A stretch of 64,000 nt of DNA from a virus. The DNA lies in IMG/VR virus record IMGVR_UViG_3300046001_006061, positions 2,928 to 66,927 of that record. One strand, given 5' to 3'. The notes under the pieces are model-generated. The model was not told the origin of the DNA. It made no database searches and saw only the letters and a list, made by a program, of their open reading frames with translations. Positions 216 through 55,136 of this stretch are shown here, piece by piece. The translations under genes and the position numbers were made by a program. The first letter of the stretch is position 1. Every line of letters starts with the position of its first letter.

Positions 216-816
216 TACAGAAAATAACGAAGAAGAAGAATTATTTGACCCCGTTTTTGACCCTAAGAAGTGGGAAATAGCACATGGCATTTATGTTCGC
301 CTTATTCAAAACGGTATGGGAGTATGCGCTCAAATCAAATTAGATATGAGTGTATTGAACGAAATTGTTAAAGAAAAAGGCTATGATAGGAATACTTTAT
401 TTATTGCTGCGCTACCAAAACGAAAGATAAAACCTAATGCCGAAACACACCTTTGTATCTTTGATGCTTTTGATGCTCGAAGTAAATCAATTTATCTAAA
501 AGGGAATAACGGGTTTACTATGCGTGGAGATTACGGTAGAGGTGCTGTTGAAGTTGAGACTTTAAAAGACAAGATAAACGATTTTTTTGAAGAAGAAAAT
601 ACAAAGATTACAAAAGAATTATTTGAAGAAGCGATAAGTTTAGAAGATGCTTTACACGCTTTAGATTGTGGATATTATGATACACATGATTTAGATAGCA
701 TTGGAAAAAATAAAGAAGAATACAAGACTAGAATAAAAGAATTGAAAAATATATTCAATTTAAAAGAAAGTGAATCCTTTTGTAGTTTCACCTTTGATGA
801 TTTTAAACTTAACTGA
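205..816 (+). CDS. hypothetical protein (likely start ATG 205, MENNTENN)
   Basis: Long ORF overlapping the upstream stop; followed by a terminator. Confidence 0.7.
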   Translation: MENNTENNEEEELFDPVFDPKKWEIAHGIYVRLIQNGMGVCAQIKLDMSVLNEIVKEKGYDRNTLFIAALPKRKIKPNAETHLCIFDAFDARSKSIYLKGNNGFTMRGDYGRGAVEVETLKDKINDFFEEENTKITKELFEEAISLEDALHALDCGYYDTHDLDSIGKNKEEYKTRIKELKNIFNLKESESFCSFTFDDFKLN

Positions 817-827
817 TAAAGAAAAAG

Positions 828-862
828 AAAAGCCCTAGCTAAATTATAACTAGGGCTTTTTT
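828..862. terminator. bidirectional rho-independent terminator
   Basis: AAAAGCCCTAG...CTAGGGCTTTTT between convergent genes. Confidence 0.8.
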
Positions 863-2971
863 CTATTGAGTTGGTTGCGTATTGTCCGCTTGTATTTCCA
901 TTGCGGTTTTTTCTAAATCTATATCGCCTTTCATTTGCGTATTAGCTAGTTTTCCCGCATTTTGAGTTTGTGTCATTTGCTCCATTGCTTGTTGTTGCAT
1001 TTGTGCTTGTTGCATCTGTGCTTCTTGCTGTGCTTTGGCTGCTGCTGCTTGTTTTTCTTCCCAAACACGTTTCTTGTACCTTAGTATGTTTCGCATTTCA
1101 GTATTTGTTTGCGCTGCCATTGCTTCGGCTGCTACTTCGGCATCTACAAAACTATTAGGGATTGATGCTTCTCTTTCAAATATTATTAAATATTCAGCAC
1201 GTTGTTTTTCGGTAATAGCGTCTTTATTATCTAGGTAAACATTTAAATCTACCAATGCCATGTCCTTAGTTAACTCGAAAATGTCGTATTCACGCTTCGT
1301 AATTCGTAATGTTTCACGCATTTCGTCTGTGTCTTCGGCTATTAAAATTAGGTTTTTTCTAATCTCACAAGCTGCATGAATAATGGTGTTTAGGTATTGT
1401 CCAAATCCATCATAAAGAGGGGTTATTCCAAATGTTGATTGCGCTATCGAATTTTCTTGAACGCCTTGTCCAATTATTCCTTTTTGGCTTCCTAGTGCTA
1501 CTCTTGGAATACTGAAAATATCTCTGATTTCGTTTTTAAATAATTCTACTTCTGCTCGTAATGATTGGTACGAATTGTAGTCTATTCCAATCTGTTCTAC
1601 TTTAAAAGCGTAGGTTCTTTTGTCGTTTTCAGAATAATCATCTCCCGTAACACCTTCTAACACTACTACACCATTGTTAATATCTTGCGCTAAACTAATT
1701 GCATCCATTCCTTCGGGAATTTTATCAGCAAATAATGTTGTTACAGCACCTTTTATTCTGTGAACCATTAAGTCAATCTTGCCTTCGTAAGCCCTAATTT
1801 TATCCACTAAATCCATTGACCTATCTACTGGGCTTCTGCTTCTACCGTTAATCAAGTCGGGAATAAAGTCTATAAACGGTGTGCCTAAATATCCTTGCGC
1901 TGTTTTGGTCATGTTTTCACATGGCTTGCATCTTAAAGCAAATAGGTTAGCAATTAGGTCGCATTGATACCATGTACTTTCATTTTCTTTATCTAAACTA
2001 ATCCATCTTGCTTTTAAAACCGATACTGATTGTTGATTTTTGTCATACCATACAATATTATCTGTCGTTCCGTATGACTGATTGAATCCACTTGTATTTT
2101 CTTTCGATAAACTATCTAGTTGGTCTAGCTGTTCTTTTGTAAGTTCGGGATATGCTGTTTTTAAAGCGGGTATTGTAAATTCTTCGATAACGCCTTGAAA
2201 TCTTTGCTTTTTACCGTTCTCGTCATCGAAGCTATTGTCCCAAATACAATTCTGTGGTTTGTGAACCTTTACTTTTACATTCCAATTTTCTACATATAAT
2301 TCTACTCGGTTAAAGTAGGTAGGAACTAAGTATCTAAACAATTCTGCTACCCAATTAGTGTAGTCTGTTTTGTATAGCCAATCTTTAGCCCAAGCGGTAA
2401 AGAAACGCTCCATTTTATTTTGAACAGTTTCTTCTAGGTATTTTCTAAGTTCTTCTTCGTTCTTAAATTCTTTGTCGCCTAGTGGCAAAAACTCCATTCC
2501 TTGCTCTTGTGCTTTTTCAAAAACATAGTTGAAGTCAATTTTCATCTTAGATAAATTGAATAGAGTTTTCTTGTATGATATGTAATCACTATCTAACGAC
2601 CTAGCAAATATTGAATCGGGAAGAGTAGAAATATTACTCGCCATTGTTCCGTTAATATGCTTTACTAACGTGTAAATAATATTCGTGTTCAGTAGTTTTA
2701 TAGGTAATGGATTATTATTTTCATCCATTGACATATAATCATAAACACCATTATTTTGTTCCGCAAATAAATATGCTAGTAACTTCATTGTTCGTGAAGC
2801 CCATTGAGTAGGTCTATTTAAAGGGTCGGTTGGCACATTTCCAACACTATAAAAAAGAGGTATTGCGTGATTGTATTTTGTACCAACATATCTTGCGTAT
2901 TGCTCGTACCATGCTTTGTCTTTTTCAATTCCAAAGTCTTTTGGTTTTAAATTTGAAATATTACTTATCAC
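863..2971 (-). CDS. portal protein (crAss-like/podovirus type)
   Basis: 702 aa, Q/A-rich coiled C-terminus, portal-like IPRVALG and V..SI.QS segment, near the terminase. Confidence 0.75.
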   Translation of the reverse strand: MISNISNLKPKDFGIEKDKAWYEQYARYVGTKYNHAIPLFYSVGNVPTDPLNRPTQWASRTMKLLAYLFAEQNNGVYDYMSMDENNNPLPIKLLNTNIIYTLVKHINGTMASNISTLPDSIFARSLDSDYISYKKTLFNLSKMKIDFNYVFEKAQEQGMEFLPLGDKEFKNEEELRKYLEETVQNKMERFFTAWAKDWLYKTDYTNWVAELFRYLVPTYFNRVELYVENWNVKVKVHKPQNCIWDNSFDDENGKKQRFQGVIEEFTIPALKTAYPELTKEQLDQLDSLSKENTSGFNQSYGTTDNIVWYDKNQQSVSVLKARWISLDKENESTWYQCDLIANLFALRCKPCENMTKTAQGYLGTPFIDFIPDLINGRSRSPVDRSMDLVDKIRAYEGKIDLMVHRIKGAVTTLFADKIPEGMDAISLAQDINNGVVVLEGVTGDDYSENDKRTYAFKVEQIGIDYNSYQSLRAEVELFKNEIRDIFSIPRVALGSQKGIIGQGVQENSIAQSTFGITPLYDGFGQYLNTIIHAACEIRKNLILIAEDTDEMRETLRITKREYDIFELTKDMALVDLNVYLDNKDAITEKQRAEYLIIFEREASIPNSFVDAEVAAEAMAAQTNTEMRNILRYKKRVWEEKQAAAAKAQQEAQMQQAQMQQQAMEQMTQTQNAGKLANTQMKGDIDLEKTAMEIQADNTQPTQ

Positions 2972-3012
2972 AATTTAGTTTTTTATGTTACAAATATATA
3001 TAAACTTAAAAG

Positions 3013-3044
3013 AAAAACCCTCACTATTTTTAGCAAGGGTTTTT
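3013..3044 (-). terminator. putative terminator
   Basis: AAAAACCCT...AGGGTTTTT inverted repeat after ORF 3047-3427. Confidence 0.55.
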
Positions 3045-3046
3045 GG

Positions 3047-3427
3047 TTATTGCGGAGTAGCCCATTCGTTATCTATTTCTTTACTTCGTATATCTTTAAA
3101 GTTTTCTATGTTTGTTTCAGTAAAACTTCCCCACCCAAATACTTGTGTAAAGGATTTACCGCTTTCGTATAGTACGGTTTTAGGTATCATTTCAGTATTA
3201 AATATAGTTCCTATTGGGTATTTTTCTACTCTGCCAATATCAGATTTGCCGTTAAAACTAAGTATAACTTCAACTATTCTTCCGTAGGTTTCGTATGATA
3301 CAAATACCTCTAATGCTTGCCATTCTTTACCGTCTTTTTTTACTCCGTTTTTGAATGATAGTATTTTTTCAAGTTTTACTTTTGTGGTCATAGGTTTAAA
3401 AAGGATATTTAGAAAGCGAATGTTCAA
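3047..3427 (-). CDS. DUF3127-like OB-fold putative ssDNA-binding protein (likely start MTTKVKL)
   Basis: G.KKDGKEWQ...FTQVFGW pattern resembling 48565-48963. Confidence 0.45.
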   Translation of the reverse strand: MNIRFLNILFKPMTTKVKLEKILSFKNGVKKDGKEWQALEVFVSYETYGRIVEVILSFNGKSDIGRVEKYPIGTIFNTEMIPKTVLYESGKSFTQVFGWGSFTETNIENFKDIRSKEIDNEWATPQ

Positions 3428-19042: not shown

Positions 19043-19050
19043 TATATTTG
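19043..19050 (+). promoter_or_regulatory. TATATTTG promoter directly upstream of the cassette array
   Basis: TAnnTTTG, 10 nt before the first TAAC. Confidence 0.7.
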
Positions 19051-19060
19051 TAGGAGAAAA

Positions 19061-19145
19061 TAACGGGCGGACGGTTTGGGCAGGCTGCAAACCTGACCAA
19101 CTTTCCACCCTAACCAACATCGCAGCTTGCTTAAACCGTATGTTA
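19061..19145 (-). repeat. attC-like site 1
   Basis: TAAC GGGCGG ACGGTTTGGGCAGGCTGC...GCAGCTTGCTTAAACCGT AT GTTA. Confidence 0.75.
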
Positions 19146-19204
19146 GAAGCAGTTAATTAAACCTTGTGCGTGGGGTTCACGCAAGTAAATTAGAAAATAA
19201 AATT

Positions 19205-19531
19205 ATGACATTTATTCATCAGCCAACAGAATTTGAAAAACAAAAAAATGATAAAGATTTTATAGAAAGATTGAAATCATTTTGTAAAAACCAATTAGAA
19301 GAAAAACCAAAAAAAATGAGTAATAAAGATAGAATTGATTATATCTCATTCCTTCATAAGCAAAATTTGAATGGAAGAGAAGATGAGGATACGCTTTTTG
19401 AAGCTGGTATAGAAGCTGGCATAACAGAAACAGAAGAGTTTATGTTAGAATTTATTGTTAGTTTAAATCTTCCATTTACTGAAGATGAAATTACGGAAAT
19501 GTTTAATAAATTTAAAGCAAATGCAGAATAA
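19205..19531 (+). CDS. cassette 1 ORF a, hypothetical
   Basis: ATG 19205 after the leader shared with cassette 8. Confidence 0.65.
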   Translation: MTFIHQPTEFEKQKNDKDFIERLKSFCKNQLEEKPKKMSNKDRIDYISFLHKQNLNGREDEDTLFEAGIEAGITETEEFMLEFIVSLNLPFTEDEITEMFNKFKANAE

Positions 19532-19802
19532 AACATACAGTGGGATACTAATTAAATATGTTAGAGATAACAATATGATTATTTGGAAAATAGAAGAATC
19601 ACTAGCTGCTTTAAATATTTATGTCGATTGTAAAGATGAAGATAAACTAACCGATTTAGATAATGAACGAAAAGTATATTTCAAACTCAAAAAAGTATTT
19701 ATGGGTAGAGAATATGGCGAAGATATGAATATGAATTTAGCATATAACCTAAGTTTTGAAATAAATGTCCAAGCGCAAAAGGCGGAAGCAAGCAAGGTTT
19801 AA
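19521..19802 (+). CDS. cassette 1 ORF b, hypothetical
   Basis: Overlaps the ORF a stop; ends in the shared 3' flank. Confidence 0.6.
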   Translation: MQNKTYSGILIKYVRDNNMIIWKIEESLAALNIYVDCKDEDKLTDLDNERKVYFKLKKVFMGREYGEDMNMNLAYNLSFEINVQAQKAEASKV

Positions 19803-19814
19803 TTTATTGCTTTC

Positions 19815-19941
19815 TAACGGTATCGGGGCTTGTAGCAGTAGGGGATTTTGAAAAACTACTGCTCAATTAACCACCACAGCCCAATAGAAGTAAAAGGCTC
19901 AAAACTTGCACTTCTGCCCCTATTGCTACAGACCCTTGTTA
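19815..19941 (-). repeat. attC-like site 2
   Basis: TAAC GGTATC GGGGCTTGTAGCAGTAGGGG...CCCCTATTGCTACAGACCCTT GTTA; near-copy of site 11. Confidence 0.8.
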
Positions 19942-19988
19942 GCGGTAGGTTTTTTCAAATCAAGGGTTAATTTTAAAAGTTACATAAA

Positions 19989-20234
19989 ATGTTCAAAAAG
20001 AAAATAACATATTTTGTACTATATTTTTTAGAAGGAAATTCAAATAATAAATATAGTGTTTATATGACATCTAATGTAGAAAGTACAAACTCCTCCGAAT
20101 TTAATTTGCATTTTAATAATCAATGCAAATTAAATTACGAAGAAAATACGGGTTTAAAAACTGATGAAGTGGTTATCGAAAGCATTCAAATGATTTCTAT
20201 TCAAGTTTCTTTGTTTGGGTGGCGTATTTTTTAA
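19989..20234 (+). CDS. cassette 2 ORF, hypothetical
   Basis: 81 aa between sites 2 and 3. Confidence 0.6.
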   Translation: MFKKKITYFVLYFLEGNSNNKYSVYMTSNVESTNSSEFNLHFNNQCKLNYEENTGLKTDEVVIESIQMISIQVSLFGWRIF

Positions 20235-20243
20235 ACTTACCGC

Positions 20244-20370
20244 TAACGTTTTCGGGCTTTGTGTCCGTTGGCGACTTAAACTACAAATGTTAAATTGAAA
20301 AACAAATATTGATATGAGTACAAAAATTAAATCGAAGAACGAAACCGCCAATGGCACAAAACCCGTGTTA
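20244..20370 (-). repeat. attC-like site 3
   Basis: TAAC GTTTT CGGGCTTTGTGTCCGTTGGCG...CGCCAATGGCACAAAACCCG T GTTA. Confidence 0.8.
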
Positions 20371-20607
20371 GGCGAAGTTATTGATAGCAAGGTTAATCAA
20401 TTGCTGTCTTTAAGTGATGAATTTATATTCCCTGCTTACTATTCACATTCAGGTAAAACAATGTGGAAGATTTCAAATGTTTATACAAAATACGGTTCTG
20501 AAACATTGGTTTTGTGTGGCGTTGATGAAGGTATTGAAACAGCAATTGATTTGGCAATAGAACACATTTCAAAAGCTAAAGATAAGTTCTATGGTGTCGG
20601 TGTATAA
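20314..20607 (+). CDS. cassette 3 ORF, hypothetical (starts inside site 3, stops on the TAA of the next TAAC)
   Basis: ORF track plus site coordinates. Confidence 0.65.
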   Translation: MSTKIKSKNETANGTKPVLGEVIDSKVNQLLSLSDEFIFPAYYSHSGKTMWKISNVYTKYGSETLVLCGVDEGIETAIDLAIEHISKAKDKFYGVGV

Positions 20608-20730
20608 CGTTTTGCGGCTTTATGCAGTAGCGGACTTAAACCAAAAAATTTGATATGGAAAACGAAATTATAAATACAGATAAAAGTTCATTAGAACCAC
20701 GAAATCCGCTATTGCTTAAAGCTGATGTTA
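20605..20730 (-). repeat. attC-like site 4
   Basis: TAAC GTTTTG CGGCTTTATGCAGTAGCGGA...TCCGCTATTGCTTAAAGCTG AT GTTA. Confidence 0.8.
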
Positions 20731-20966
20731 TAAGCCGTTTTGGTGAATGTAAGTACAGTTGTCAATTAACACACGAGCCAAGTTGGTTTCATACAATATT
20801 GATTAAAGACTTTAGCATTTATATCGAGGAATGGATGGATGATGAAGATAATGAAATTTGTGCAACAGTTTTTACAGGCGAGAAAAAAAATGCTAATGGC
20901 TTTGCAAATACCAACTTGGCTTTATTGTTGAATGATATTGAGGAGTTCGTTAAAAATGGCTTATAA
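20655..20966 (+). CDS. cassette 4 ORF, hypothetical (starts inside site 4)
   Basis: 103 aa; stop is the TAA of TAAC at 20964. Confidence 0.65.
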   Translation: MENEIINTDKSSLEPRNPLLLKADVISRFGECKYSCQLTHEPSWFHTILIKDFSIYIEEWMDDEDNEICATVFTGEKKNANGFANTNLALLLNDIEEFVKNGL

Positions 20967-21057
20967 CGTTTGGTGGCTTTGTGTCTGTTTGCCCCTTGCG
21001 CAAAGTTTCAAGTTTACCACAAATGTTGATGGGGCAAATAGCACAAAACCGCTGTTA
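20964..21057 (-). repeat. attC-like site 5
   Basis: TAAC GTTT...GGCTTTGTGTCTGTTTGCCCC...GGGGCAAATAGCACAAAACCGCT GTTA; near-copy of site 7. Confidence 0.8.
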
Positions 21058-21095
21058 TGCGTAGTAGCGGATTATTAACGATAAATTTAATTAAA

Positions 21096-21563
21096 ATGAT
21101 GAAACATAAACAAAAACAACCTTACGGATGCGGTTTATATGCCGTTGCAAACGCCTGTAATTTAGACAACTTTATTACAGATGAAAGACTTGAAAAAAGT
21201 AAAACAGGAAATGTAATAGGGCAACTTTCAAAGTGGATGCAAGAAGATGGACACCCATTTTACATTGATACGCTTTACTATAACCACGTTGGAAAAAAGT
21301 TACCTAAAACGGCATTGGACTATAAACCAAGTGGAGAAGGAATACATTTTTTGCCTGTGCTTATAAATGTAAGATTTTCTGATGAAGGGAAAAATCATTT
21401 AGTAGGTGGGAAAATTGACAAAGAAGGCAAATTATATTTATACGATAGCCTTAAAGAAGAAATGATTGAAACAACGATGAGGCAGGTAAACAGAATGTAT
21501 CATCACGTTTACGGGTTGTTTTTGTTTATGGGTGTTGATAATGGAGAATATGTCTTTATATAG
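21096..21563 (+). CDS. cassette 5 ORF, papain-like cysteine peptidase
   Basis: Q..PYGCGLYAVAN nucleophile helix, NHLVG, LYLYDSL (Cys-His-Asp). Confidence 0.6.
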   Translation: MMKHKQKQPYGCGLYAVANACNLDNFITDERLEKSKTGNVIGQLSKWMQEDGHPFYIDTLYYNHVGKKLPKTALDYKPSGEGIHFLPVLINVRFSDEGKNHLVGGKIDKEGKLYLYDSLKEEMIETTMRQVNRMYHHVYGLFLFMGVDNGEYVFI

Positions 21564-21584
21564 CAGTAACGTAGCTATTACGCA

Positions 21585-21672
21585 TAACGTTTTGCGTATA
21601 TGAGAAGTGGCACTTGCAGAATGTTGAAAGTTAGCACGAATGTTTCTGTGCCATTTCTTATATACGCTGTTA
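21585..21672 (-). repeat. attC-like site 6
   Basis: TAAC GTTTT GCGTATATGAGAAGTGGCAC...GTGCCATTTCTTATATACGC T GTTA; near-copy of site 10. Confidence 0.85.
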
Positions 21673-21708
21673 TAAGCAGCCTTTTTATTAACTTAAATTA
21701 AAAACAAA

Positions 21709-21981
21709 ATGAGAAACTTTAAAACAAAAATTGAAGGACACGAAGAAGAGTTTGACTTTGAATGTTACGAAAATACAGAATCAATAGAAATTGGAGATAA
21801 ATATATTTTCTTTTTTGGTGGTATTGCAGACGTTCAAGTATGCGACTCTGAAAATGTAAAAGAAGAAGTAAACAAACACAATAGACCTTATCAGTACGAT
21901 AAAATTGATTTAACACACAATTTTTGGACTAAGTGTTTTAAAATTAAAGAAACAAATTTTGACCTTAGTACGGTTTTATAA
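21709..21981 (+). CDS. cassette 6 ORF, hypothetical
   Basis: 90 aa. Confidence 0.65.
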   Translation: MRNFKTKIEGHEEEFDFECYENTESIEIGDKYIFFFGGIADVQVCDSENVKEEVNKHNRPYQYDKIDLTHNFWTKCFKIKETNFDLSTVL

Positions 21982-21990
21982 GGTTGCTTA

Positions 21991-22084
21991 TAACGTTTTG
22001 CGGCTTTGTGTCTGTTTGCCCCTTGCACAAAAGTTTCAAGTTACCACAAATGTTGATGGGGCAAATAGCACAAAACCGCTGTTA
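21991..22084 (-). repeat. attC-like site 7
   Basis: Same family as site 5. Confidence 0.85.
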
Positions 22085-22136
22085 TATGCCGTTGTGGGTT
22101 GTCAAAAGGAATTTTAAAACTTAATAATTAAAAAAT

Positions 22137-22742
22137 ATGTATAAATGTAATATTTGTCCTGCTGAATTTAAAACAGAAAAGGGATTATCAAACCACAAAT
22201 GTAGGTGGATATGTAAAATATGTGGAACTAAACTTACCACACCAAAAGGTTATGATAGGCACTTGCAAAATCATAGTAACTCTGAAACAAGAAAAAAAGA
22301 ACAACAGATAAAGCAGGTTGAAGCACAAAAACAAAAAGATGAAGAATTTGCAATAAAATATCAAAAATTGATTGATATGGGTTTATTTAATCCATTACAT
22401 AATTCTGGCGATAGTGTTATTGTTTCTACATATATTGTAACAAAGCCAACTCACGAACAAAGGTTTAATAGAATGGTAAGAGTTCGGTATGAAGAGGAAA
22501 GAAGGTATGATGTATTTGATTGGATAATAGACAAAGCAATAGAACCAACAATTAACGATTTGTATAGGATTAATAATTGTATTGAGTTGAATAAACAATA
22601 TCCAATTCAATATTTAACAAAGAATTTTAAAGTAATTTCTGAATCCAATATTTTTCAAGATAGAACCAAAGCTATTGATGAGGCAACTAATAAAGGTAAA
22701 CAATATAAAGAGGCTTGTGACTTTGCTTCTATGTGTCGCTAA
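22137..22742 (+). CDS. cassette 7 ORF, tandem C2H2-type zinc-finger protein
   Basis: YKCNICPAEFKTEKGLSNH and CKICGTKLTTPKGYDRHLQNH. Confidence 0.7.
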   Translation: MYKCNICPAEFKTEKGLSNHKCRWICKICGTKLTTPKGYDRHLQNHSNSETRKKEQQIKQVEAQKQKDEEFAIKYQKLIDMGLFNPLHNSGDSVIVSTYIVTKPTHEQRFNRMVRVRYEEERRYDVFDWIIDKAIEPTINDLYRINNCIELNKQYPIQYLTKNFKVISESNIFQDRTKAIDEATNKGKQYKEACDFASMCR

Positions 22743-22752
22743 CAATGGCATA

Positions 22753-22840
22753 TAACGGGCGGACGCTTGCATTGCAGGTTGCAAAAACAATAATTATTCC
22801 TTACAGTAACTTGTCAGCAACTTGCTGCAAGCGTATGTTA
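22753..22840 (-). repeat. attC-like site 8
   Basis: TAAC GGGCGG ACGCTTGCA..GCAGGTTGC...GCAACTTGCTGCAAGCGT AT GTTA; family of site 1. Confidence 0.75.
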
Positions 22841-22899
22841 GAAGCAGTAAATTAAACCTTGTGCGTGGGGTTCACGCAAGCAAATTAGAAAATAAAATT

Positions 22900-23307
22900 A
22901 TGAAATCAACAGAAGAAGAAAAGAAAAAAGAAAAAATAGTTCAATCCGCTTACGGTAATCTTTATGAAAAATATAAAATAAACATAAATAAATACAGCGG
23001 ATTCACAGATACAAAAGAGGAAAAATTAGGATTCTCGCCATTGTCTGATGAAATTGAATATTTGGATTTTACTTGTAGTAATTTATGGAGACCAATTTCG
23101 TTAAAAGGAATAGAAAATAATAATGGGTGGATACGTATTGATAATAAACAATCAATTGAAAAAATAAATTATGTTGGATGGGCGTTCATACGTGTTTGTC
23201 GTGAAAATATTGAAGATATTTATTGTGAATATGTAGCAAATTCAATAGGCTATTTCTATGCTACTCATTACCAACCAATAATAAAACCTAAATCACCTCA
23301 TTTTTAG
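22900..23307 (+). CDS. cassette 8 ORF, phage hypothetical with DUF551-like C-terminus
   Basis: NNNGWIRI...ATHYQPIIKP. Confidence 0.6.
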   Translation: MKSTEEEKKKEKIVQSAYGNLYEKYKININKYSGFTDTKEEKLGFSPLSDEIEYLDFTCSNLWRPISLKGIENNNGWIRIDNKQSIEKINYVGWAFIRVCRENIEDIYCEYVANSIGYFYATHYQPIIKPKSPHF

Positions 23308-23348
23308 CGCAAAAGGCGGAAGCAAGCAAGGTTTAATTTATTGCTTTC

Positions 23349-23426
23349 TAACGTTTTCGGGCTTGGCGAAGTGGCTTTTGTGCGTTGGCTTGTGTGTCGG
23401 GAAGCCATTTTGCCAAACCCGTGTTA
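23349..23426 (-). repeat. attC-like site 9
   Basis: TAAC GTTTT CGGGCTTGGCGAAGTGGCT...AGCCATTTTGCCAAACCCG T GTTA; arms shared with site 12. Confidence 0.85.
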
Positions 23427-23486
23427 TACGCTGGCACGGGTAATTTAGTAGGAACTTAATTTGAAACACAAATAAAAATCAAAGCA

Positions 23487-23792
23487 ATGGCAACAGCAAT
23501 TTATGAAATACCGAACTCCGTAAAGGAAATGTTTGAACAAGGCGAAAATAGTTATCGCATAATTGACTATTCAATACAGGAAATGGACAATATCCAAAGT
23601 ATGCAACATTTCCTTGACTGCATAGGTGCAACAAGCGATAATATTGAAACAGACGATGGAACGCAAGTGGTAATTATTCATCCTGACTTTGACCACAAAC
23701 TTGTAATTGATAGTGGTGGGTTGGGCGATTTTTATTCTCACGGTTATGACGTAACTCTCTATTCGGAGACGGTCAGTAGTGCTTGCGTATAA
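23487..23792 (+). CDS. cassette 9 ORF, acidic hypothetical protein
   Basis: 101 aa; stop is the TAA of TAAC at 23790. Confidence 0.65.
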   Translation: MATAIYEIPNSVKEMFEQGENSYRIIDYSIQEMDNIQSMQHFLDCIGATSDNIETDDGTQVVIIHPDFDHKLVIDSGGLGDFYSHGYDVTLYSETVSSACV

Positions 23793-23877
23793 CGTTTTGC
23801 GTATATGAGAAGTGGCACTTGTAGAATGTTGAAATTTAGCACAAATGTTTCTGTGCCATTTCTTATATACGCTGTTA
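23790..23877 (-). repeat. attC-like site 10
   Basis: Near-copy of site 6. Confidence 0.85.
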
Positions 23878-23946
23878 CCTGCTGGTGCGGTTAATTTAGT
23901 AGAATTTTGATTTGAAAACGAATAGAAAATTTAAAAAGTTTTAGAG

Positions 23947-24192
23947 ATGGAAACACAAAAAATGTATGGAGTAGAATATAAAACAGATAGCAGTTCTACT
24001 TATGAAATATTTGAAAATTACGATGATGCGTTAGCTTTTGCTAATAGTAATGAAAATGCTATGTTTTTATTTACAGCAGACTTTAATAAGGACAGAGTTT
24101 ATTTAGATAGTGAAACTTGGAATTACGATGATTTTACCGACACTTTTATTAACCAAGAAATAATTGAAACTTATGAAATATATGGGAAGTAA
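23947..24192 (+). CDS. cassette 10 ORF a, acidic hypothetical protein
   Basis: 81 aa, D/E-rich. Confidence 0.6.
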   Translation: METQKMYGVEYKTDSSSTYEIFENYDDALAFANSNENAMFLFTADFNKDRVYLDSETWNYDDFTDTFINQEIIETYEIYGK

Positions 24193-24940
24193 GGCGAGAT
24201 TTAGTAAAGAGATTTTGCCGATAATATTAAAAGACAGAACAGCCGACCAATGGTATGTTGAGCCATTTGCAGGTGGAATGAACGCAATTTGTGATGTAGA
24301 TGGCAATAGACTTGCTAATGATAAAAACTACCACTTAATTGAAATGTGGAAAGGATTAACAAATGGCGTTAAATACCCAACAGACATACCAAAAGATTTG
24401 TATGACCTTGCAAGAGATGTTTATAATGGTAGAGAAACAAGGTTTGAACACAAAATGAATATGGCTGATGATATGGTGGGTTGGATTGGTTGGATGGGTT
24501 CTGCAAATGGTAGATTTTTTGATGGTGGATATTCTGGTAAATCAAATACCAAAATTGGAACGGTAAGAAATTACATTAAGGAAGCAATAAGTAATATTGA
24601 AAAGCAATTACCAAAGATGGTAGGTGTTAAATTTGAGAACAAAGATTATACTGAATTGCTATTACCCAATAACAGTATTATTTATTGCGACATTCCATAT
24701 CAAGGAACAAAACAATATTCAACATCAAAAGATTTTAACCATTCAAATTTTTGGAAATGGTGCAGAGAAAAGGCAAAGCAAGGACATACAATTTTTGTAA
24801 GTGAATACGAAGCACCTGCCGACTTTGAATGTGTTTGGCAAAAAGAGGCTAAATCTTCTTTATCGGCAAATGGTGTAATAGGTGGTAATAAGGTGAGTGT
24901 GGAAAAACTTTTTAAATTTTCTCCCACAAATGCTAATTAG
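24173..24940 (+). CDS. cassette 10 ORF b, Dam/D12-class DNA adenine methyltransferase
   Basis: KYMGSK, YVEPFAGG, AND.N, IYCDIPY, FVSEY. Confidence 0.9.
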   Translation: MKYMGSKARFSKEILPIILKDRTADQWYVEPFAGGMNAICDVDGNRLANDKNYHLIEMWKGLTNGVKYPTDIPKDLYDLARDVYNGRETRFEHKMNMADDMVGWIGWMGSANGRFFDGGYSGKSNTKIGTVRNYIKEAISNIEKQLPKMVGVKFENKDYTELLLPNNSIIYCDIPYQGTKQYSTSKDFNHSNFWKWCREKAKQGHTIFVSEYEAPADFECVWQKEAKSSLSANGVIGGNKVSVEKLFKFSPTNAN

Positions 24941-24964
24941 AAGCACGAATGTAGCACTTGCAGG

Positions 24965-25091
24965 TAACGGTCTGGGGCTTGTAGCAGAAGGGGAATTTGA
25001 AAAACTACTGCGCAATTAACCACCACAGCCTAATAGAAGTAATAAGGCTCAAAACTTCCACTTCTGCCCCTATTGCTACAAACCCTTGTTA
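24965..25091 (-). repeat. attC-like site 11
   Basis: Near-copy of site 2. Confidence 0.8.
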
Positions 25092-25139
25092 GCGGTTCGG
25101 GCTTGTTTTCACAAGGGTATAAATTTTAAATAAATAAAA

Positions 25140-25376
25140 ATGTCAGAGAAAAAAGTATCAGTTACCATTAAGTGTAAACAAGTAATGCACTTTGCTCAAA
25201 GTGTTGAAATGTCCGAAAGTGATTATGAGAAAATCAAAGATTTGGATTTTGAAGATGTCCACGAAATAAGAGAAAGAGAGCAGTATTCAGTTATTGAAGG
25301 ATATCTGAATTTTATGGATATTCTTGAAAGCGATGATGAATTTTTAGATGTCCAAATTACCAAAGATGAAGATTAG
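25140..25376 (+). CDS. cassette 11 ORF, acidic hypothetical protein
   Basis: 78 aa. Confidence 0.6.
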   Translation: MSEKKVSVTIKCKQVMHFAQSVEMSESDYEKIKDLDFEDVHEIREREQYSVIEGYLNFMDILESDDEFLDVQITKDED

Positions 25377-25400
25377 TAGGGTGTTTTTTAGCCTGACCGC

Positions 25401-25520
25401 TAACGTTTTCGGGCTTGGCGAAGTGGCTGAACGCGAAGCTAAATAGAATTACAAAACTTTAAAATTAAAAACGAATGATTGATAGAATTACTGAACAGCC
25501 ATTTTGCCAAACCCGTGTTA
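25401..25520 (-). repeat. attC-like site 12
   Basis: Arms as in site 9, longer loop containing the ATG of the next ORF. Confidence 0.85.
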
Positions 25521-26248
25521 GTGGCAGTACTTTTGTGAACGCAGACTGCTTTGATGTTTTTCCTTTTATTGAGGATAAATCAATTGATGCGATTATTTGC
25601 GATTTGCCTTATGGAACTACTGCTTGTAAGTGGGATAGTATCCTGCCATTAGACAAACTTTGGAATGAATACAAGCGTGTTTTAAAGCCAAACGGTGTTA
25701 TTTTACTTACTGCTTCGCAACCATTTACAACTGTTTTGATTGGAAATGATTTGAAAATGTTTAAGTATAATTTAGTTTGGGATAAAGTAGCTGTTACAAA
25801 TCCGATGTTGGCTAAAAAACAACCTATGAGATGCCACGAAGATGTATTGATTTTTTACGATAAGCAACCAACTTACAACCCACAAATGAGAGTAGGCGTA
25901 AAATGGAGTAGAGCAGGAAAAAAACAACATACAACAGATACTTTAGGGCAAAGCACGTTGTTTAATAATGGAAGCGATGAAAGTGAAATGAAATACCCTA
26001 AAAGTATTATCACATTTTCAAATGCTGACAAAACAAAAAACGAACATCCAACTCAAAAACCGATTGACTTAATGGAATGGTTGATTAAAACATATACAAA
26101 CGAAGGCGATATGGTATTAGACAATACAATGGGTTCAGGAACAACAAACTTGGCTTGTATTAAATTAAATCGCAAATCAATTGGAATAGAAAAGGAAAAA
26201 CAATATTACGATGTTGCTGTTCGGAGGGCTTCGGAGTATTGCCACTAA
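25475..26248 (+). CDS. cassette 12 ORF, N4/N6 (beta-class) DNA methyltransferase
   Basis: SIDAIICDLPYG, HPTQKP, VLDNTMGSGTT, GIEK. Confidence 0.92.
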   Translation: MIDRITEQPFCQTRVSGSTFVNADCFDVFPFIEDKSIDAIICDLPYGTTACKWDSILPLDKLWNEYKRVLKPNGVILLTASQPFTTVLIGNDLKMFKYNLVWDKVAVTNPMLAKKQPMRCHEDVLIFYDKQPTYNPQMRVGVKWSRAGKKQHTTDTLGQSTLFNNGSDESEMKYPKSIITFSNADKTKNEHPTQKPIDLMEWLIKTYTNEGDMVLDNTMGSGTTNLACIKLNRKSIGIEKEKQYYDVAVRRASEYCH

Positions 26249-26269
26249 CTATGTGATTGGCGCAACAAC

Positions 26270-27943
26270 ATGGTAATACAATCAATGATAACTAACATTT
26301 CAGCTATACCAACAGAAAGAATAATGAGTTGTGATTTTGTAATTATAACTCATTATTTACCGAACACAGATTATGTTTTTAGTGGCAATGAGGTTTACAA
26401 GAAAATAAACAGTAACCTAAAACCAGTATCAACTTATATGAGTGGTAGATGTAAGGTCGCTAAGATAAATACTAAGCCAAAAAGTTTAACATGGCTAAAA
26501 GCAAATAGAAAAAGCAAAATAGAAACTTTTATAAAAAACGTACAAATATTACCTTTTTAAACATGAAAAATAAACCAATCCCCAAATCCAAACTAGGGCG
26601 CAACAAAAACGAACTGCCAACAAAGCGTATTTCACGAAGAGTTGACCCTCGTATTTACGACAACTGTATTGACTACATAGCTAGTCAAGTTAAATTAATA
26701 AAGTCACAAAAAACACCAATCGAACAATGAAAAGAGCATTGCAAATTTTAGGAAACTTAGCTATATTAGCTGTGTTTATGTTTTATGTTTGGCAAACTTT
26801 AGTTAGATAGAATTATGACATTTAGCATATTCGAAGAAGACTTTACTCAACCGCAAAGACGAGGAGAACTAATAGCAACATTTACAATATCAAGTAAATT
26901 AACCAAACTCCAAAAGCGAGAAACAAGAGATTACTTTTGGCAAATAAAAGACTATCTTCAAAAAATAGAAAACAAAAATTTAATAATTAAAATAGGAGAA
27001 TAACATGGATAAATTAGCATTTTACATCATAATAGCAGTAATAGGAAGCGTTGTAGCTTGGTTTAGCTACATTGTTTACACTTTACTTCGTAGCCGCAAC
27101 ACACCGCAGCAAAAGGACAAAGACTTAGTTTTAATAAAATCTATTCGTTTTGAAATAGACGGCTTAAAGGATAGAGTTATTGAATTATACAAGCGTACCG
27201 AAGTTTACGAGATACACGATACCGATTCACCTATAATAGTGGTAACAATTGGTGAAGCAGTGGCGAGAATGAAGCATAAGCAAATATTTCTAAATTATAG
27301 ACAAGCGTGTTTAGATATGGATAGAATTTTTAAAGTAGTAGTAATAACAGTATAAATTATGGAACAGAAAATAAAAGAAGTACAAGAATACTTCAAACAA
27401 AAAATGCTTAAAGGCGAGTTTGTATTGGGCGAAAAAGTTGAACCAACATTTTCAGATATTATAATCGAGGATAGGTATAAATTTATAATTTGGATAAGTA
27501 CAACACATGATACCGCTAAAGTTTGGGAAAGTGTTGATAACCATTTTATCAAAGGAATTAAGTTTACAGATGAAGAGCAAATAGAGTTCCGTAAAATTAT
27601 AGAGCCAAAACTTGCATCATGGTATATAAAAATTGGACTACAACAAGATAAAGACGCTTTCAATAAATTAGCAGTTAAACTAGGTAAAGAACAAATAACC
27701 GAATAAATGAAACCACAAAGAGAAGCAGAATTTGCAATAGTTAGAGCAGCAGTACAAGCTACTAACGACCAAAAGCTAGTGTACGACCATTATAAACGTA
27801 TTACAGCAACAGACGAAGCCACCGAAGAAGATTATATCAAACTTGGTGAAGCAAAAGAAGCATGGAAACAAGCGGGTTTAAATTCGCAGCAAATGTTTTC
27901 ACTATACAATATTTCAGAATTAACAGCAATAAATCACAAATAA
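26270..27943 (+). other. run of small hypothetical genes (26270-26560, 26563-26730, 26815-27003, 27005-27355, 27359-27706, 27707-27943)
   Basis: Co-oriented, tightly packed ORFs. Confidence 0.6.
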
Positions 27944-27968: not shown

Positions 27969-28880
27969 ATGGAAAACGAAGAAATTCAAATTATTGATGC
28001 TGGAATTTACGAACAGCAAGACAGAGCAATCTTTGATGTGCAAATTGTTACGGCTAAAAAATATCCCCGTAATATTATGAGAGCAACCTCAAATGCTATT
28101 GCAATTGTTACTATGGACATGGAAACAGCAAAAGTATGTACCTATTCAGTTCCTAGAGGTGGAAAGTCAATTACAGGACCTTCTGTGCATTTAGCTAAAA
28201 TCTTATTGCAGCAATGGGGAAACTTGCGAGTAGAAGCAAAAGTTGTAGAAACAACCGATAGACAGTTGACAAGCGAAGCAGTTTGCTTTGACCTAGAAAC
28301 TAACATTGCAGTTAAGGTTCAAGTTAAGCGTTCTATTATGACTAGAAGTGGTAGAATGACAGACGACATGATTACTGTTACGGGTAATGCTGCAAATTCA
28401 ATAGCTTTAAGAAATGCTGTTTATAATGTAATCCCTAGAGGTGTTGTTGATAAAGTTTACGATTCAGCAAAGAAAATGATTACGGGAGATTTATCAAGTG
28501 AAACAAAATTAATTGCCAAGCGTAAGCAAGTTGTAGATGCCCTAAGAGATACTTACAACATAACCGAAGAAGAAGTATTAAAAGCAGTTGGGAAGGCAGC
28601 ACAATCGCAATTAACAACAGACGATATTATTACCTTAATCGGTATCGGGACAGCAATTAAAGACGGTGATACAACAGTAGATTTTGCTTTTAGAAACTTG
28701 AAAGGAAGTGTTATCGAAAACCCAACACCAACTAATCACGAAGAAGACCGAGTAAAATTGATGTTAAGTGACTGCAAAACCGCTAAAGAAGTTGACGAAT
28801 TAGCTAAGAACAACCCCGAAATTAGCCAAGAACTTGTAATTGCAAGAAAAGACGAATTAAAACAAGGGAAACTATTGTAA
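27969..28880 (+). CDS. putative single-strand annealing/recombination protein
   Basis: 303 aa, translationally coupled to an exonuclease; YSVPRGGK.ITGPSVHLA...WGN motif; family assignment is inference. Confidence 0.45.
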   Translation: MENEEIQIIDAGIYEQQDRAIFDVQIVTAKKYPRNIMRATSNAIAIVTMDMETAKVCTYSVPRGGKSITGPSVHLAKILLQQWGNLRVEAKVVETTDRQLTSEAVCFDLETNIAVKVQVKRSIMTRSGRMTDDMITVTGNAANSIALRNAVYNVIPRGVVDKVYDSAKKMITGDLSSETKLIAKRKQVVDALRDTYNITEEEVLKAVGKAAQSQLTTDDIITLIGIGTAIKDGDTTVDFAFRNLKGSVIENPTPTNHEEDRVKLMLSDCKTAKEVDELAKNNPEISQELVIARKDELKQGKLL

Positions 28881-29812
28881 TGGAAAATGCTGATGATTTA
28901 TTATTTAGGTGTTCCGCATTGGGACACCTAATGAAAGAGCCGAAGGGTTCAAGTGCTTATTTTATACATGGAGTTGAACTTACAACAGCTAAAGCAAATA
29001 AACTAATTGACGAAGCTATTAAAACTAAAAGTATTGGAAACCTATTAGGTCTTGAAAAAAGAACTTTAAAGCCAAGCAATGACGATTTAGCAGAAGGAGT
29101 AAAAACACATTTAGTTGATGTGTATGTAGCTGCAATGTATGAAAGACATGAAGAAATATCTAGTAAATACTTGGACAAGGGAAACGAAACGGAAGAAAAT
29201 TCTATTACAATTGTTTCTCGAATGACTAAAGAGTTCTATAAGAAAAATGAAACTACTTTAAGGAATAATTTTATTTGCGGTACTCCCGATTTGTTTAAAG
29301 GAAAAGATATTCATAACGCTACTCACATTCGAGATACAAAGAGCAGCTATTCAGTTTACACTTTCCACCGTTCAATTTCAAAAGAATTATTAGACCTTTA
29401 CTATTGGCAAGTTCAAGGATACATGGCATTGAGTGGCGCACAAGTAGCAAATGTTGATTACTGCTTAAACAATACTCCTTTTAACATGATAGAAGCAGAA
29501 CTAAGACGTGAAAGTTATAAATATTTAGAAGGAAATACTCCTAATTGGATTGATTTACAAATTGCTGCCAATCATATATTTGACCGTAACAGTTTTGAAG
29601 AATTTATTCAGCGTATAGGAATTAACCCTACTGATGAAAACTCAAAAGCAATCGTTCAAGGATTTGTAGAAATACCTTTAGAAAAGCGTTGGTTTACTTT
29701 TGAAGTAAAACGCAATGATGAAGATATTCAACGCTTGTACGATAGAATAAGACAATGTAGAAACTGGATAAATGAAAGGTATTTCAATGACACAATTAGC
29801 ACCAACATTTAA
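28880..29812 (+). CDS. YqaJ/lambda-exonuclease-like PD-(D/E)XK nuclease
   Basis: FRCS..G.LM, KG...E, GTPD, D.KSS, YYWQVQGYM. Confidence 0.85.
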   Translation: MENADDLLFRCSALGHLMKEPKGSSAYFIHGVELTTAKANKLIDEAIKTKSIGNLLGLEKRTLKPSNDDLAEGVKTHLVDVYVAAMYERHEEISSKYLDKGNETEENSITIVSRMTKEFYKKNETTLRNNFICGTPDLFKGKDIHNATHIRDTKSSYSVYTFHRSISKELLDLYYWQVQGYMALSGAQVANVDYCLNNTPFNMIEAELRRESYKYLEGNTPNWIDLQIAANHIFDRNSFEEFIQRIGINPTDENSKAIVQGFVEIPLEKRWFTFEVKRNDEDIQRLYDRIRQCRNWINERYFNDTISTNI

Positions 29813-50752: not shown

Positions 50753-51436
50753 ATGCAAAACGATGAAAAATATGTGGCTTATAAAAGAGTTTCTACCAAA
50801 GAACAAGGTCAAAGCGGTCTTGGTTTAGAAGCGCAAGAGAAGGCTGTGAAGCAAATAACTGATAGTGGTATTGTGATTAAGTCTTTTACCGAAATAGAAT
50901 CAGGCAAAAAGAACAATAGACCTATGCTTTTGGAAGCAATAAATATGTGTAAGCTACATAACGCTACTTTAGTTGTGGCTAAACTTGATAGGCTTTCGAG
51001 AAATGTTTACTTTATTAGTTCGCTAATGGAAAGCAAAGTTAAGTTTATATGTGCGGATTTTAAAGAGGTTGATAATTTCACTTTGCATATATTTGCTTCT
51101 CTCGCAGAACGTGAGCGCAAAATGATTTCCGAGAGAACCGTTAATGGCTTGAACTCTATAAAAAACAGACTTAAAAAAGACAAGGTTTACGTTACCAAAA
51201 AAGGGAATACAATTACTTCTCTTGGAAACCCTCTTATGCAATGTAAAGAATACGCTAAAAAACAAATGAGTATCGTTGCTTCTAATAGGGTTTACAATAA
51301 ACGCAATCCTGTTGGAGTAGAACTAATCAAAGCCTATGCTAAAAATGGAATGGCTGCAAAAGATATTAAGGTGAAGCTGAACGAAAACAGCATTAATTAT
51401 ACGCTTAAAACTATTTACCAACACATAAAAGCATGA
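50753..51436 (+). CDS. small serine recombinase (resolvase/invertase family)
   Basis: VAYKRVSTKEQ, E.ESG...RP.L..A, LVVAKLDRLSR, AE.ER..I.ERT. Confidence 0.92.
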   Translation: MQNDEKYVAYKRVSTKEQGQSGLGLEAQEKAVKQITDSGIVIKSFTEIESGKKNNRPMLLEAINMCKLHNATLVVAKLDRLSRNVYFISSLMESKVKFICADFKEVDNFTLHIFASLAERERKMISERTVNGLNSIKNRLKKDKVYVTKKGNTITSLGNPLMQCKEYAKKQMSIVASNRVYNKRNPVGVELIKAYAKNGMAAKDIKVKLNENSINYTLKTIYQHIKA

Positions 51437-53842: not shown

Positions 53843-53957
53843 TGTTTTTTTATGTCGTTTTTCTTGACGTTTCAAATATATAAATAAAAAATGCTATATG
53901 CAATTTTTTTCAAAAACTTCACATAGCTTCTGTTAGCTGCCACCTTTAGGACAGAGT

Positions 53958-54563
53958 ATGAGAGACAATAAAGGACAATTAGAATTATTAGGTTTCTTAA
54001 AAGACAACTACCATAACGGAGATGTTAATATTGCGCCTATTCTGAAAAAAATAAGCGAATTACATAATTTTGACTACAACGACATAAAAACGTATTGTCT
54101 AAATCCATTAAGAGATAAGGGTTATATGAAAGACTGTAATTATAGCGACTTGGGTGGTTTAAATAAAAGTATTCGGGCTACTTATGACAATACAAGAATA
54201 CTTACTTGTTTGACGGAAAAGGGATATAATTATTTATTTAATTTAGACAATCATGAATTATCTAAACAGCTATCACTATCCACGTTAGAAACGAACAAGG
54301 CTATAAAGACTGCAAGTATAATTCAATGGGTTGCTGCGGTTTCCACTGTTTTAATTATTTCCGCTAATTGTATAATTGATTTTTTAAATTACGACTTTAA
54401 CAAAGCAACACATCATACATCATATATGCAACAGCAGAAAGACTCGACAGACAAAGAAGCTCAAAAAAGACTACTCGACACACTGCATATTTATCGCCAT
54501 CAAATTGACAGTCTTGTGTTATTGGGTAAGACAAAAAAGCAAGTATTTTCCAAACCAAAATAG
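53958..54563 (+). CDS. cassette ORF, winged-helix-like N-terminus plus TM helix
   Basis: L..KGY...LTEKGY; hydrophobic IIQWVAAVSTVLIISANCII. Confidence 0.6.
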   Translation: MRDNKGQLELLGFLKDNYHNGDVNIAPILKKISELHNFDYNDIKTYCLNPLRDKGYMKDCNYSDLGGLNKSIRATYDNTRILTCLTEKGYNYLFNLDNHELSKQLSLSTLETNKAIKTASIIQWVAAVSTVLIISANCIIDFLNYDFNKATHHTSYMQQQKDSTDKEAQKRLLDTLHIYRHQIDSLVLLGKTKKQVFSKPK

Positions 54564-54624
54564 TGTGTGCCGACAACGTAAAACGACACTCATTAACTAA
54601 ACTCACACTTAAACAAAAAACAAT

Positions 54625-54831
54625 ATGACAACAAAATTTAAAATTGGCGACACTGTTAAACTAAAATCAGGCAGCCCAGTAATGACAATTACCAATACAA
54701 AGGTTTGGAAAAGAGTTGAAAAGAAACTTGATTGGGACGAAACTTATGCTGAATGCACTTGGTTTGACATCGACAACAAATCACATACAAAAGAGTTTCC
54801 AAAAGACGCTTTAGAAAAAATTAACGACTAA
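54625..54831 (+). CDS. cassette ORF, YodC/DUF2158-family protein
   Basis: FKIGDTVKLKSGSPVMTI...CTWFD...F...AL. Confidence 0.85.
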   Translation: MTTKFKIGDTVKLKSGSPVMTITNTKVWKRVEKKLDWDETYAECTWFDIDNKSHTKEFPKDALEKIND

Positions 54832-54964
54832 GGTAATATACCCTAATTCCTAAGAAATAAACGTGCAATTCTTTTTTGTCTGAATCTCTAATCACTCTAA
54901 CAATGCTTGACAAAGTACCGTATTTAAATTTTGACATTATGTTTTTATACATAAGGCGAGCAGC

Positions 54965-55082
54965 TAACAGCACCCTTGCGAAAATTTGCTACCTCTCGGA
55001 ACTACTGCTCCTATTGGCTTTTTTCTGCGTTGACAACTTCGTGTTCCAATACCGCAAACTATCGCAAGGCTGCGAAACGTTA
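54965..55082 (+). repeat. attC-like site 13
   Basis: TAAC A GCACCCTTGCGAAAATTTGC...GCAAACTATCGCAAGGCTGC GAAAC GTTA; reverse-complement architecture of array sites. Confidence 0.8.
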
Positions 55083-55136
55083 TTGCAAATGTAATATAAA
55101 ATACCATACAAACAAGTAAAAAGAATGATATTTTCG

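Follow-up and report, generated by a model that had tools for sequence, protein, structure and literature searches.

How does a phage come to carry a long run of small gene units, each led by its own hairpin, inside a region that is otherwise shared with its relatives, and how might such a stock of genes be filled and expressed? The question is raised by a 64,000-nucleotide (nt) stretch of viral DNA, here called the window, which comprises bases 2928-66927 of a 66.9-kb IMG/VR virus record (labelled G000 in comparisons) and has a G+C content of ~32%. Since Pfam finds in it the crAss muzzle and ring proteins 1 and 2, alongside a phage lysozyme, antirepressor domains and a small serine recombinase, and PHROGs a large terminase subunit, the source is, by its protein matches, a crAss-like phage. 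The insertion occupies window positions 19061-26249, in the early region of the phage, and consists of 12 hairpin-led cassettes with the tetranucleotide TAAC at both ends. It is probably an integron-like array of mobile gene cassettes, whose units would travel in circular form, exchange strands within the TAAC core, enter at a right end that bears no hairpin, and be expressed from a predicted promoter box at the opposite end.

The edges of the array emerge from comparison with relatives. Three IMG/VR contigs with the same flanks, L001, L002 and L003, were retrieved, and identity to L003 (~90% on the left) stops at 19065 and resumes at ~26242 on the right. These edges, together with those against the Flavobacterium phage mumin6-1 described below, indicate that the array boundaries are not due to chance. 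They bear out the original prediction, made from the letters of the window, that the array was inserted at TAA|C and is framed by conserved flanks; the letters and coordinates on which that prediction drew are all present in the sequence as it had them. The left TAAC starts 10 nt past TATATTTG, the candidate promoter box, and of the 8 nt that lead up to it only 2 pair with the bases following hairpin 1. On the right, the TAA of the terminal TAAC is the stop codon of the last open reading frame (ORF) of the array, 25475-26248. As had been anticipated, no hairpin follows it: the fold of 26220-26320 has a z-score of +0.36, compared with -1.55 to -5.92 against shuffles at the 12 array hairpins and an isolated site elsewhere in the window.

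The interval bounded by the two TAAC cores contains 12 imperfect hairpins, 78-127 nt long and all in one orientation. Each opens with TAACG and some four unpaired bases; a long stem with interruptions and a loop that varies come next, and GTTA closes it. A duplex scan at <= -16 kcal/mol returned exactly these 12 and the isolated site, which is on the minus strand, the only other calls being two overlapping ones on hairpin 3; with the cut-off relaxed to -12, the hits in three mononucleotide shuffles of the window numbered 2, 0 and 5. In a comparison of 44 diverse sequences from the family, compensatory changes appear at 17 of the 18 consensus pairs, and TAAC and GTTA are invariant. In free folds the four bases after TAACG are unpaired, on the crossover-side arm, in 10 of the 12 sites, sites 1 and 8 having a shorter unpaired stretch. 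The ATG of an ORF falls inside the hairpin loop in 3 of the 12 cassettes (3, 4 and 12), which taken alone is not strong evidence. A search of Rfam gave one match, at chance level, and a scan for sigma-70-like and terminator-like sites found no enrichment.

The unit itself, its breakpoints and the self-complementarity of its ends are directly apparent. Each cassette starts at the C of a TAAC and ends with the TAA of the following one, with the hairpin first and then one or two ORFs on the same strand. The 8 nt that follow the GTTA of a hairpin can pair with the final 8 nt of that cassette, which directly precede the next TAAC, and this pairing is complete (8/8) in 7 of the 12. Averaged over the 12 cassettes, the contiguous pairing run is 6.0 with the cassette's own 3′ end and 1.08 with the end of its upstream neighbour. 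The same disparity recurs elsewhere: the two means are 5.02 and 1.34 for 131 distinct cassettes of viral contigs, and 4.83 and 1.05 for 86 of bacterial contigs. Because the ends pair with their own start, the cassette is to be read as C-hairpin-gene(s)-TAA, and the full stem would form only in a unit circularised at TAA|C. Cassettes 1 and 8 carry this pattern further. They hold different ORFs and share a ~60-nt leader, which includes a small GC hairpin, and a ~45-nt trailer (repeats D6, D8, I3, I6, I10 and I11). Leader and trailer form a 20-nt inverted repeat (19145-19170 with 19790-19817; 22840-22865 with 23325-23351), which would extend the hairpin stem in the circular form.

Relatives of the phage differ by whole units of exactly this kind. 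L003 has both junctions around 3 cassettes only, ~2.1 kb in all, and thereby supplies, at the same junction, the shorter allele on which the original prediction had staked itself. L002 differs from L003 by one added cassette of 1310 nt, which encodes a C5 cytosine methyltransferase; the sides of this addition are 100% identical and its joints share TAAC only. L001 has a different last cassette in place of the last one of L003. All three patterns can be explained, on the evidence of the alignments, by single insertions at the right end, and the stock appears to turn over between genomes whose flanks are 90-100% identical. Cassettes also travel between phages that are not related. The Flavobacterium phages mumin, filifjonk and tooticki contain a stretch with 86% identity to cassette 12, and in mumin6-1 the identity extends from GCTAAC (25399), before the hairpin, to the C of the terminal TAAC (26249). 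Past that TAAC, mumin6-1 continues with another hairpin and the window with its own flank. The mumin6-1 genome has 7 such hairpins, each leading a plus-strand gene, and four of the genes so led are annotated as methyltransferases. Homologues of the cassette-12 methyltransferase (62-68% identity) stand behind a sense hairpin in 45 viral loci, with the ATG at the same loop offset, 73, in 24 of them. The cargo comprises two DNA methyltransferases in the window and a C5 methyltransferase and a phosphoadenosine-phosphosulfate (PAPS)-reductase-domain protein in relatives; this cargo fits counter-defence genes.

The hairpins belong to a family that extends well beyond this phage. Exact matches to one 22-nt hairpin arm occur in at least 121 genome contigs, nearly all from Bacteroidota, and in at least 127 viral contigs. 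Gene orientation and recombinase loci were taken from the matches listed, which were not de-replicated and were chosen by an arm linked to the methyltransferase cassette. Co-oriented hairpin arrays occur among them in both the viral and the Bacteroidota sets. Over 174 intervals at viral loci, gene and hairpin lie on the same strand in 114 and on opposite strands in none (36 ambiguous, 24 without a call); over 122 bacterial intervals the corresponding counts are 9 and 65 (17 ambiguous, 31 without a call). Bacterial arrays thus have the classical order, gene then site, whereas in phages the site is ahead of the gene. The ORFs of the window array all run from the box side toward the hairpin-less right end, the reverse of bacterial arrays with the same sites.

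Chromosomal arrays of 7-20 hairpin-bounded cassettes are found in the Bacteroidota contigs L112, L123/L124, L137, L103, L110 and L116. An Xer-like recombinase of 369-375 amino acids (aa), which lacks the insertion typical of IntI, is encoded at the end of Bacteroidota arrays, its gene pointing into the array. In all six clear bacterial arrays listed (L112, L162, L111, L115, L144 and L128), a tyrosine recombinase occupies the end equivalent to 26249, and these enzymes are 45-56% related. At the viral loci L223, L237 and L255, the gene for a related tyrosine recombinase of 265-294 aa starts 40-50 nt past the last TAAC, and in L223 the last cassette, which adjoins the recombinase gene, is the same methyltransferase cassette as cassette 12. 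At L237 the last cassette before the recombinase (2680-3333) encodes an ART-PolyVal ADP-ribosyltransferase domain protein. The recombinase location in these three phage contigs and six bacterial arrays, and the single-cassette differences at the same end in relatives of the phage, agree with the earlier proposal that the right end is the equivalent of attI. Because of both, new units are expected to enter at 26246-26249. The enzyme that would carry out the exchange is probably a Xer-like tyrosine recombinase acting in trans, supplied perhaps by a chromosomal array of the host or by a co-infecting phage. The serine recombinase at 50753-51433 (+), which matches Pfam Resolvase and a PHROG DNA invertase and lies 2.5 kb from the isolated cassette, was set aside as a candidate for the array enzyme, being small, of the invertase type and not linked to arrays elsewhere.

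Expression of the stock is where the candidate promoter enters. TATATTTG matches TAnnTTTG, the -7 box of Bacteroidota sigma-A promoters. In transcription start site (TSS) maps of Flavobacterium, TAnnTTTG lies at -12 to -5 (PMC9723704), and the start before the array is therefore predicted at ~19055. None of the 14 array ORFs has a TAnnTTTG within 80 nt upstream; in six other genes of the phage, all with an intergenic gap in front, one stands 27-40 nt ahead of the ATG. Joining the flanks, as the original prediction had done on paper, would put the box just before the next phage gene, with 34 nt between box and ATG 26270, within the range of the other six. Of 285 distinct viral-locus hairpins among the matches listed, 9 are preceded by a TAnnTTTG that ends 0-12 nt short of the TAAC (3.0 expected); 6 of these 9 head their chain, namely those of this array, the isolated cassette, L003, L266, L267 and L288, from ~5 separate lineages. 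The promoter reading of TATATTTG is thus plausible and recurrent on sequence grounds. Because no cassette brings a -7 box with it and every one is oriented away from TATATTTG, the box would most likely drive the whole array from the end opposite the insertion point.

A second, solitary unit offers a comparison. About 6 bases pair across the two cores at the ends of the isolated cassette, and for this reason it appears to be a true single cassette, from 55079 to 53933 on the minus strand; the orientation of its ORFs relative to the hairpin is of the bacterial type. Two genomes aligned to the window, G002 and G003, lack 53882-55136, which 3 bases replace. This stretch exceeds the cassette in length and takes in both the TACATTTG box ahead of it and the motif CTATGTGA beyond it, so these genomes show absence of the isolated cassette and not the precise empty site that had been predicted. 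The plus-strand right edge of this indel falls at a third G|TTA, in the stop codon of a 1950-aa gene (55136|55137). CTATGTGA occurs in the window in two copies only, at 26249-26256 (+) and 53926-53919 (-), where ~1.2 per strand are expected, and both are just past the far-side TAAC of a cassette.

Several observations weigh against an integron-like array that is mobile and expressed in the manner outlined. The first concerns the enzyme. Tyrosine recombinase PF00589 has no match in G000 or in any of the three genomes G001-G003, and the short Xer-like gene that elsewhere stands just after the terminal TAAC is absent in this phage, so that activity during infection has to be presumed. Since PF00589 is missing from all four and G002 and G003 together appear to span the whole ~70-76 kb circle, the lineage probably relies on a recombinase supplied in trans. 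The second concerns the target. The search of related phages for a joined site yielded the shorter allele and not the empty one, which was found in none of the three relatives retrieved. For the promoter, TAnnTTTG is not enriched, with 121 occurrences in the window and 115 +/- 15 in Markov shuffles; it is the position of the box that counts, not its presence. Among first-in-chain hairpins of the other phages listed, 25 of 31 distinct ones have no box within 70 nt, many of them probably not being true array starts. The nearest TTG upstream is 22 nt before TATATTTG, a spacing longer than usual. The isolated cassette was likewise supposed to lie just behind a promoter. The arrangement TACATTTG-CAA-TAAC is indeed there at 55093-55079, but the box belongs to DNA that G002 and G003 lack and is antisense to both ORFs, which leaves a promoter at this place weak. 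The claim that both far-side flanks contain CTATGTGA holds for the window and fails in relatives, whose right flank has not kept it. CTATGTGA was rejected as a general site motif, being absent from the flank of relatives and not enriched after TAAC elsewhere; TATGTGA follows TAAC in other phage loci in 2 of 75 occurrences, against roughly 3 expected by a rough estimate from TAAC frequency. Finally, the site geometry is unlike that of classical attC and the array recombinases lack the IntI insertion, and for these two reasons the integron mechanism serves as an analogy, not as a demonstrated identity. The array is integron-like in its working and not a classical integron.

If the objections to the box are given full weight, the array would be real and TATATTTG not an active promoter; transcripts would then reach the cassettes by read-through from an early operon upstream, whose first box is at 13529, or be made by the virion RNA polymerase. 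This is possible, if on the doubtful side. The background frequency of TAnnTTTG would suit it, as would several intergenic gaps in the same plus-strand block that have no box. crAss-like phages use a virion RNA polymerase for their early genes, and the window contains a 1950-aa ORF (55140-60989) with no Pfam or PHROG match. Against an inactive box stand its placement and its persistence: in the joined form the distance from its first T to the ATG is 42 nt, inside the 27-54 nt of the other boxed genes of the phage; it is kept in L003; and similarly placed boxes precede the first hairpins in L266, L267 and L288, two of them right after terminator-like sequences of GC stem and T run.

Much of the evidence for an integron-like array is equally what an integron proper would offer. 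Integrons and clusters of attC sites lacking integron integrases (CALINs) likewise have co-oriented cassettes without a promoter motif of their own, imperfect palindromes with AAC...GTT cores that are conserved in structure and variable in sequence, a crossover in the core, a longer stem rebuilt only in the circle, and an insertion end without a hairpin. An ordinary CALIN of a classical integron, with true attC sites recombined by a canonical host IntI, is nevertheless an unlikely account of the array. In its favor, the cores, the G after AAC and the own-end pairing fit the logic of attC, and phage CALINs have been published, including one in a Polaribacter phage with two methyltransferases; IntI1 recombined 5 of 6 phage attC sites tested (PMC9892861). 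Against it, the array recombinases are of another kind. The one in L112, closest to XerA-like proteins, has 21 residues where VchIntIA (IntI4) has 63, and scores 208 bits against TIGR02249, below the integron-integrase cut-off of 265; the phage version has only 265 aa. The sites, too, are built differently. In attC, according to Bouvier et al. (2009; PMC2727003), the crossover lies in the R′ box, the base after AAC is usually a G, and extrahelical bases are on the R″-L″ arm. The crossover core here is also followed by a G, but the unpaired bases are on the arm of the crossover box, forming a 4-nt bulge beside it.

The departures extend to the layout of the array. Its ORFs lie on the equivalent of the attC bottom strand, the hairpin leads the gene, and transcription would run toward the insertion end; the genes are not oriented for a promoter at the attI end, and the only box is at the far end. 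The recombinases linked to such arrays, in other phages and in Bacteroidota, lack the IntI-specific insertion, and this phage encodes none. Size sets it apart as well. In 10,705 phage genomes 17 CALINs were found (Qi et al., 2023; PMC9892861), and the examples compared here have two to three attC sites, unlike the 12 sites here. In a literature search, only these small phage CALINs came up; reversed gene orientation, a Xer-like enzyme and arrays in crAss-like phages were not described. The Bacteroidota chromosomal arrays are closer kin, sharing the hairpin family (down to an identical 22-nt arm), the TAAC breakpoint and the own-end pairing, and differing in having their genes on the opposite strand and a 369-375-aa recombinase encoded at the array end.

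Two further systems resemble parts of what is proposed. In CTX-phi type integration, Xer recombinases act on a folded single-stranded DNA hairpin, so that the pairing of a Xer-family enzyme with a single-strand hairpin is common to both; there, however, a single element integrates at dif and no cassette array is formed. Cassettes inserted outside att sites are expressed from nearby promoters (Loot et al., bioRxiv 10.1101/2022.09.11.507474), and such insertions, at attG sites or as single attC sites lacking integron integrases (SALINs), are alike in placing a cassette or array at a non-att site where it relies on a resident promoter. The isolated cassette at 53933-55079 would fit a single inserted cassette of this sort. 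That work used IntI1 in Escherichia coli, whereas the array studied here lies in a phage genome, was probably inserted by a Xer-like enzyme, and would have its resident promoter at the far end.

It is also improbable that the hairpins are regulatory or boundary elements, comparable to the promoter-early stem-loops (PeSLs) of T4-type phages, between which homologous recombination shuffles genes with no site-specific enzyme. Near-identical hairpin pairs (repeats D3, D4 and D7/D9, 83-96%) could support such exchange, and the phage has an exonuclease (28880-29809; PHROG phrog_5715) beside a conserved protein of unknown function (27969-28877). Yet the right junction has no hairpin, the joints share 4-6 bases only, cassette ends pair with their own start and not with that of a neighbor, and elsewhere a tyrosine recombinase stands at a fixed end of the array. 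In PeSL-type cassettes, moreover, each repeat unit has a promoter; here no box accompanies the hairpins (0 of 14 array ORFs), and neither sigma-70-like nor terminator-like sites show enrichment. It is barely credible that the units are non-autonomous elements of the IS200/IS605 type, dependent on an HUH (Y1) transposase with insertion 3′ of a tetranucleotide: insertion beside a fixed tetranucleotide, hairpins at one end and a single orientation of units recall them, but each unit has one hairpin and not two subterminal ones, the core lies in the stem and not outside it, and the enzyme adjoining the arrays is a tyrosine recombinase.

Taking the integron-like array as the favored explanation, its parts may be joined into a wider picture, which is offered tentatively and at somewhat less than even confidence. 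Phages of Bacteroidota would run their own version of the integron, in which the gene lies on the recombining (bottom-type) strand behind the hairpin and a resident promoter at the far end, not a cassette promoter (Pc) at the insertion site, expresses the stock, the transcript ending with the newest cassette. The mirrored hairpin would be read by an enzyme of the Xer type that lacks the IntI insertion and often comes in trans. Because the coding strand is also the folding strand, transcription could expose the sites and couple expression to exchange. The result would be a phage-specific pool of counter-defence genes passing between unrelated families (crAss-like phages and Muminvirus). Integrons are regarded as bacterial devices, and the phage examples in the literature are small and rare; the present stock, in a crAss-like phage of lytic type, numbers 12 cassettes. 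The reversed orientation and far-end promoter would amount to an expression logic unlike that of Pc and attI, one that predicts which cassettes are expressed and where new ones land. Such a system would explain the trade of methyltransferases and other likely anti-defence genes among phages of one phylum. The cultured Flavobacterium phages with the same cassettes bring promoter, circles and recombinase within reach of the bench.

Table 1. Coordinates of the array, its cassettes and junctions, the predicted box and the isolated cassette (window positions)
Feature	Position	Strand	Details
Bacteroidota sigma-A type -7 box TATATTTG (predicted)	19043-19050	+	predicted TSS ~19055; conserved in L003
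Left junction core TAAC	19061-19064	+	phage flank on left, cassette 1 on right; L003 identity ends at 19065
Cassette 1	19064-19817	+	hairpin 19061-19145; ORFs 19205-19531 and 19575-19802; 5′ and 3′ untranslated modules common to cassette 8
Cassette 2	19818-20246	+	hairpin 19815-19941; ORF 19989-20234; own ends pair 8/8
Cassette 3	20247-20607	+	hairpin 20244-20370; ORF 20314-20607, ATG in loop, stop is TAA of next core
Cassette 4	20608-20966	+	hairpin 20605-20730; ORF 20655-20966, ATG in loop, stop in next core; own ends pair 8/8
Cassette 5	20967-21587	+	hairpin 20964-21057; ORF 21057-21563; own ends pair 8/8
Cassette 6	21588-21993	+	hairpin 21585-21672; ORF 21709-21981; own ends pair 8/8
Cassette 7	21994-22755	+	hairpin 21991-22084; ORF 22137-22742 (C2H2 zinc-finger protein); own ends pair 8/8
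Cassette 8	22756-23351	+	hairpin 22753-22840; ORF 22900-23307
Cassette 9	23352-23792	+	hairpin 23349-23426; ORF 23487-23792, stop in next core
Cassette 10	23793-24967	+	hairpin 23790-23877; ORFs 23947-24192 and 24173-24940 (D12-class N6-adenine DNA methyltransferase)
Cassette 11	24968-25403	+	hairpin 24965-25091; ORF 25140-25376
Cassette 12	25404-26248	+	hairpin 25401-25520; ORF 25475-26248 (N4/N6 DNA methyltransferase), ATG in loop, stop in terminal core; own ends pair 8/8
Right junction core TAAC	26246-26249	+	no hairpin behind; attI-equivalent end
20-base spacer and next phage gene	26250-26560	+	ATG 26270, 96 aa; gene has 95% aa identity in L001 and L002
Isolated single cassette	53933-55079	-	hairpin 55082-54965 on minus strand; ORFs 53958-54563 and 54625-54831 on plus strand
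TACATTTG box	55093-55086	-	followed by CAA, then TAAC 55082-55079; 3 nt before isolated-cassette core

The retrieval of relatives drew on several collections. The array flanks had no match among 50,697 phage records, low stringency included, and left-flank proteins used as queries gave no usable relatives. A right-flank protein profile and a right-flank DNA pattern found no match in metagenome_contigs; in viral_contigs the DNA pattern found L001, L002 and L003 only. Eighty remoter phages, reached through a 303-aa neighbor gene, have that gene in common with the window and in a few loci the exonuclease, and are uninformative on the junction. Alignment of G002 and G003 to the window implies a circularly permuted genome of ~70-76 kb, beside which the CheckV completeness of 51% looks too low. 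Among assembled contigs, those of X2 (lake water label, share 0.94) contain the array in pieces with 0-2 differences, one 38.9-kb contig bridging the left junction. Another contig starts at 26246, an end given no evidential weight. RNA-labelled runs had shares of 0.09 or less. Those of X6 (wastewater label) are 88-95% like several cassettes and do not cover the phage flanks, which is no evidence of their absence. A further hairpin with AAC...GTT ends (-14.8 kcal/mol) lies at window positions 806-876 (+), between convergent ORFs; it is probably a terminator, outside the family.

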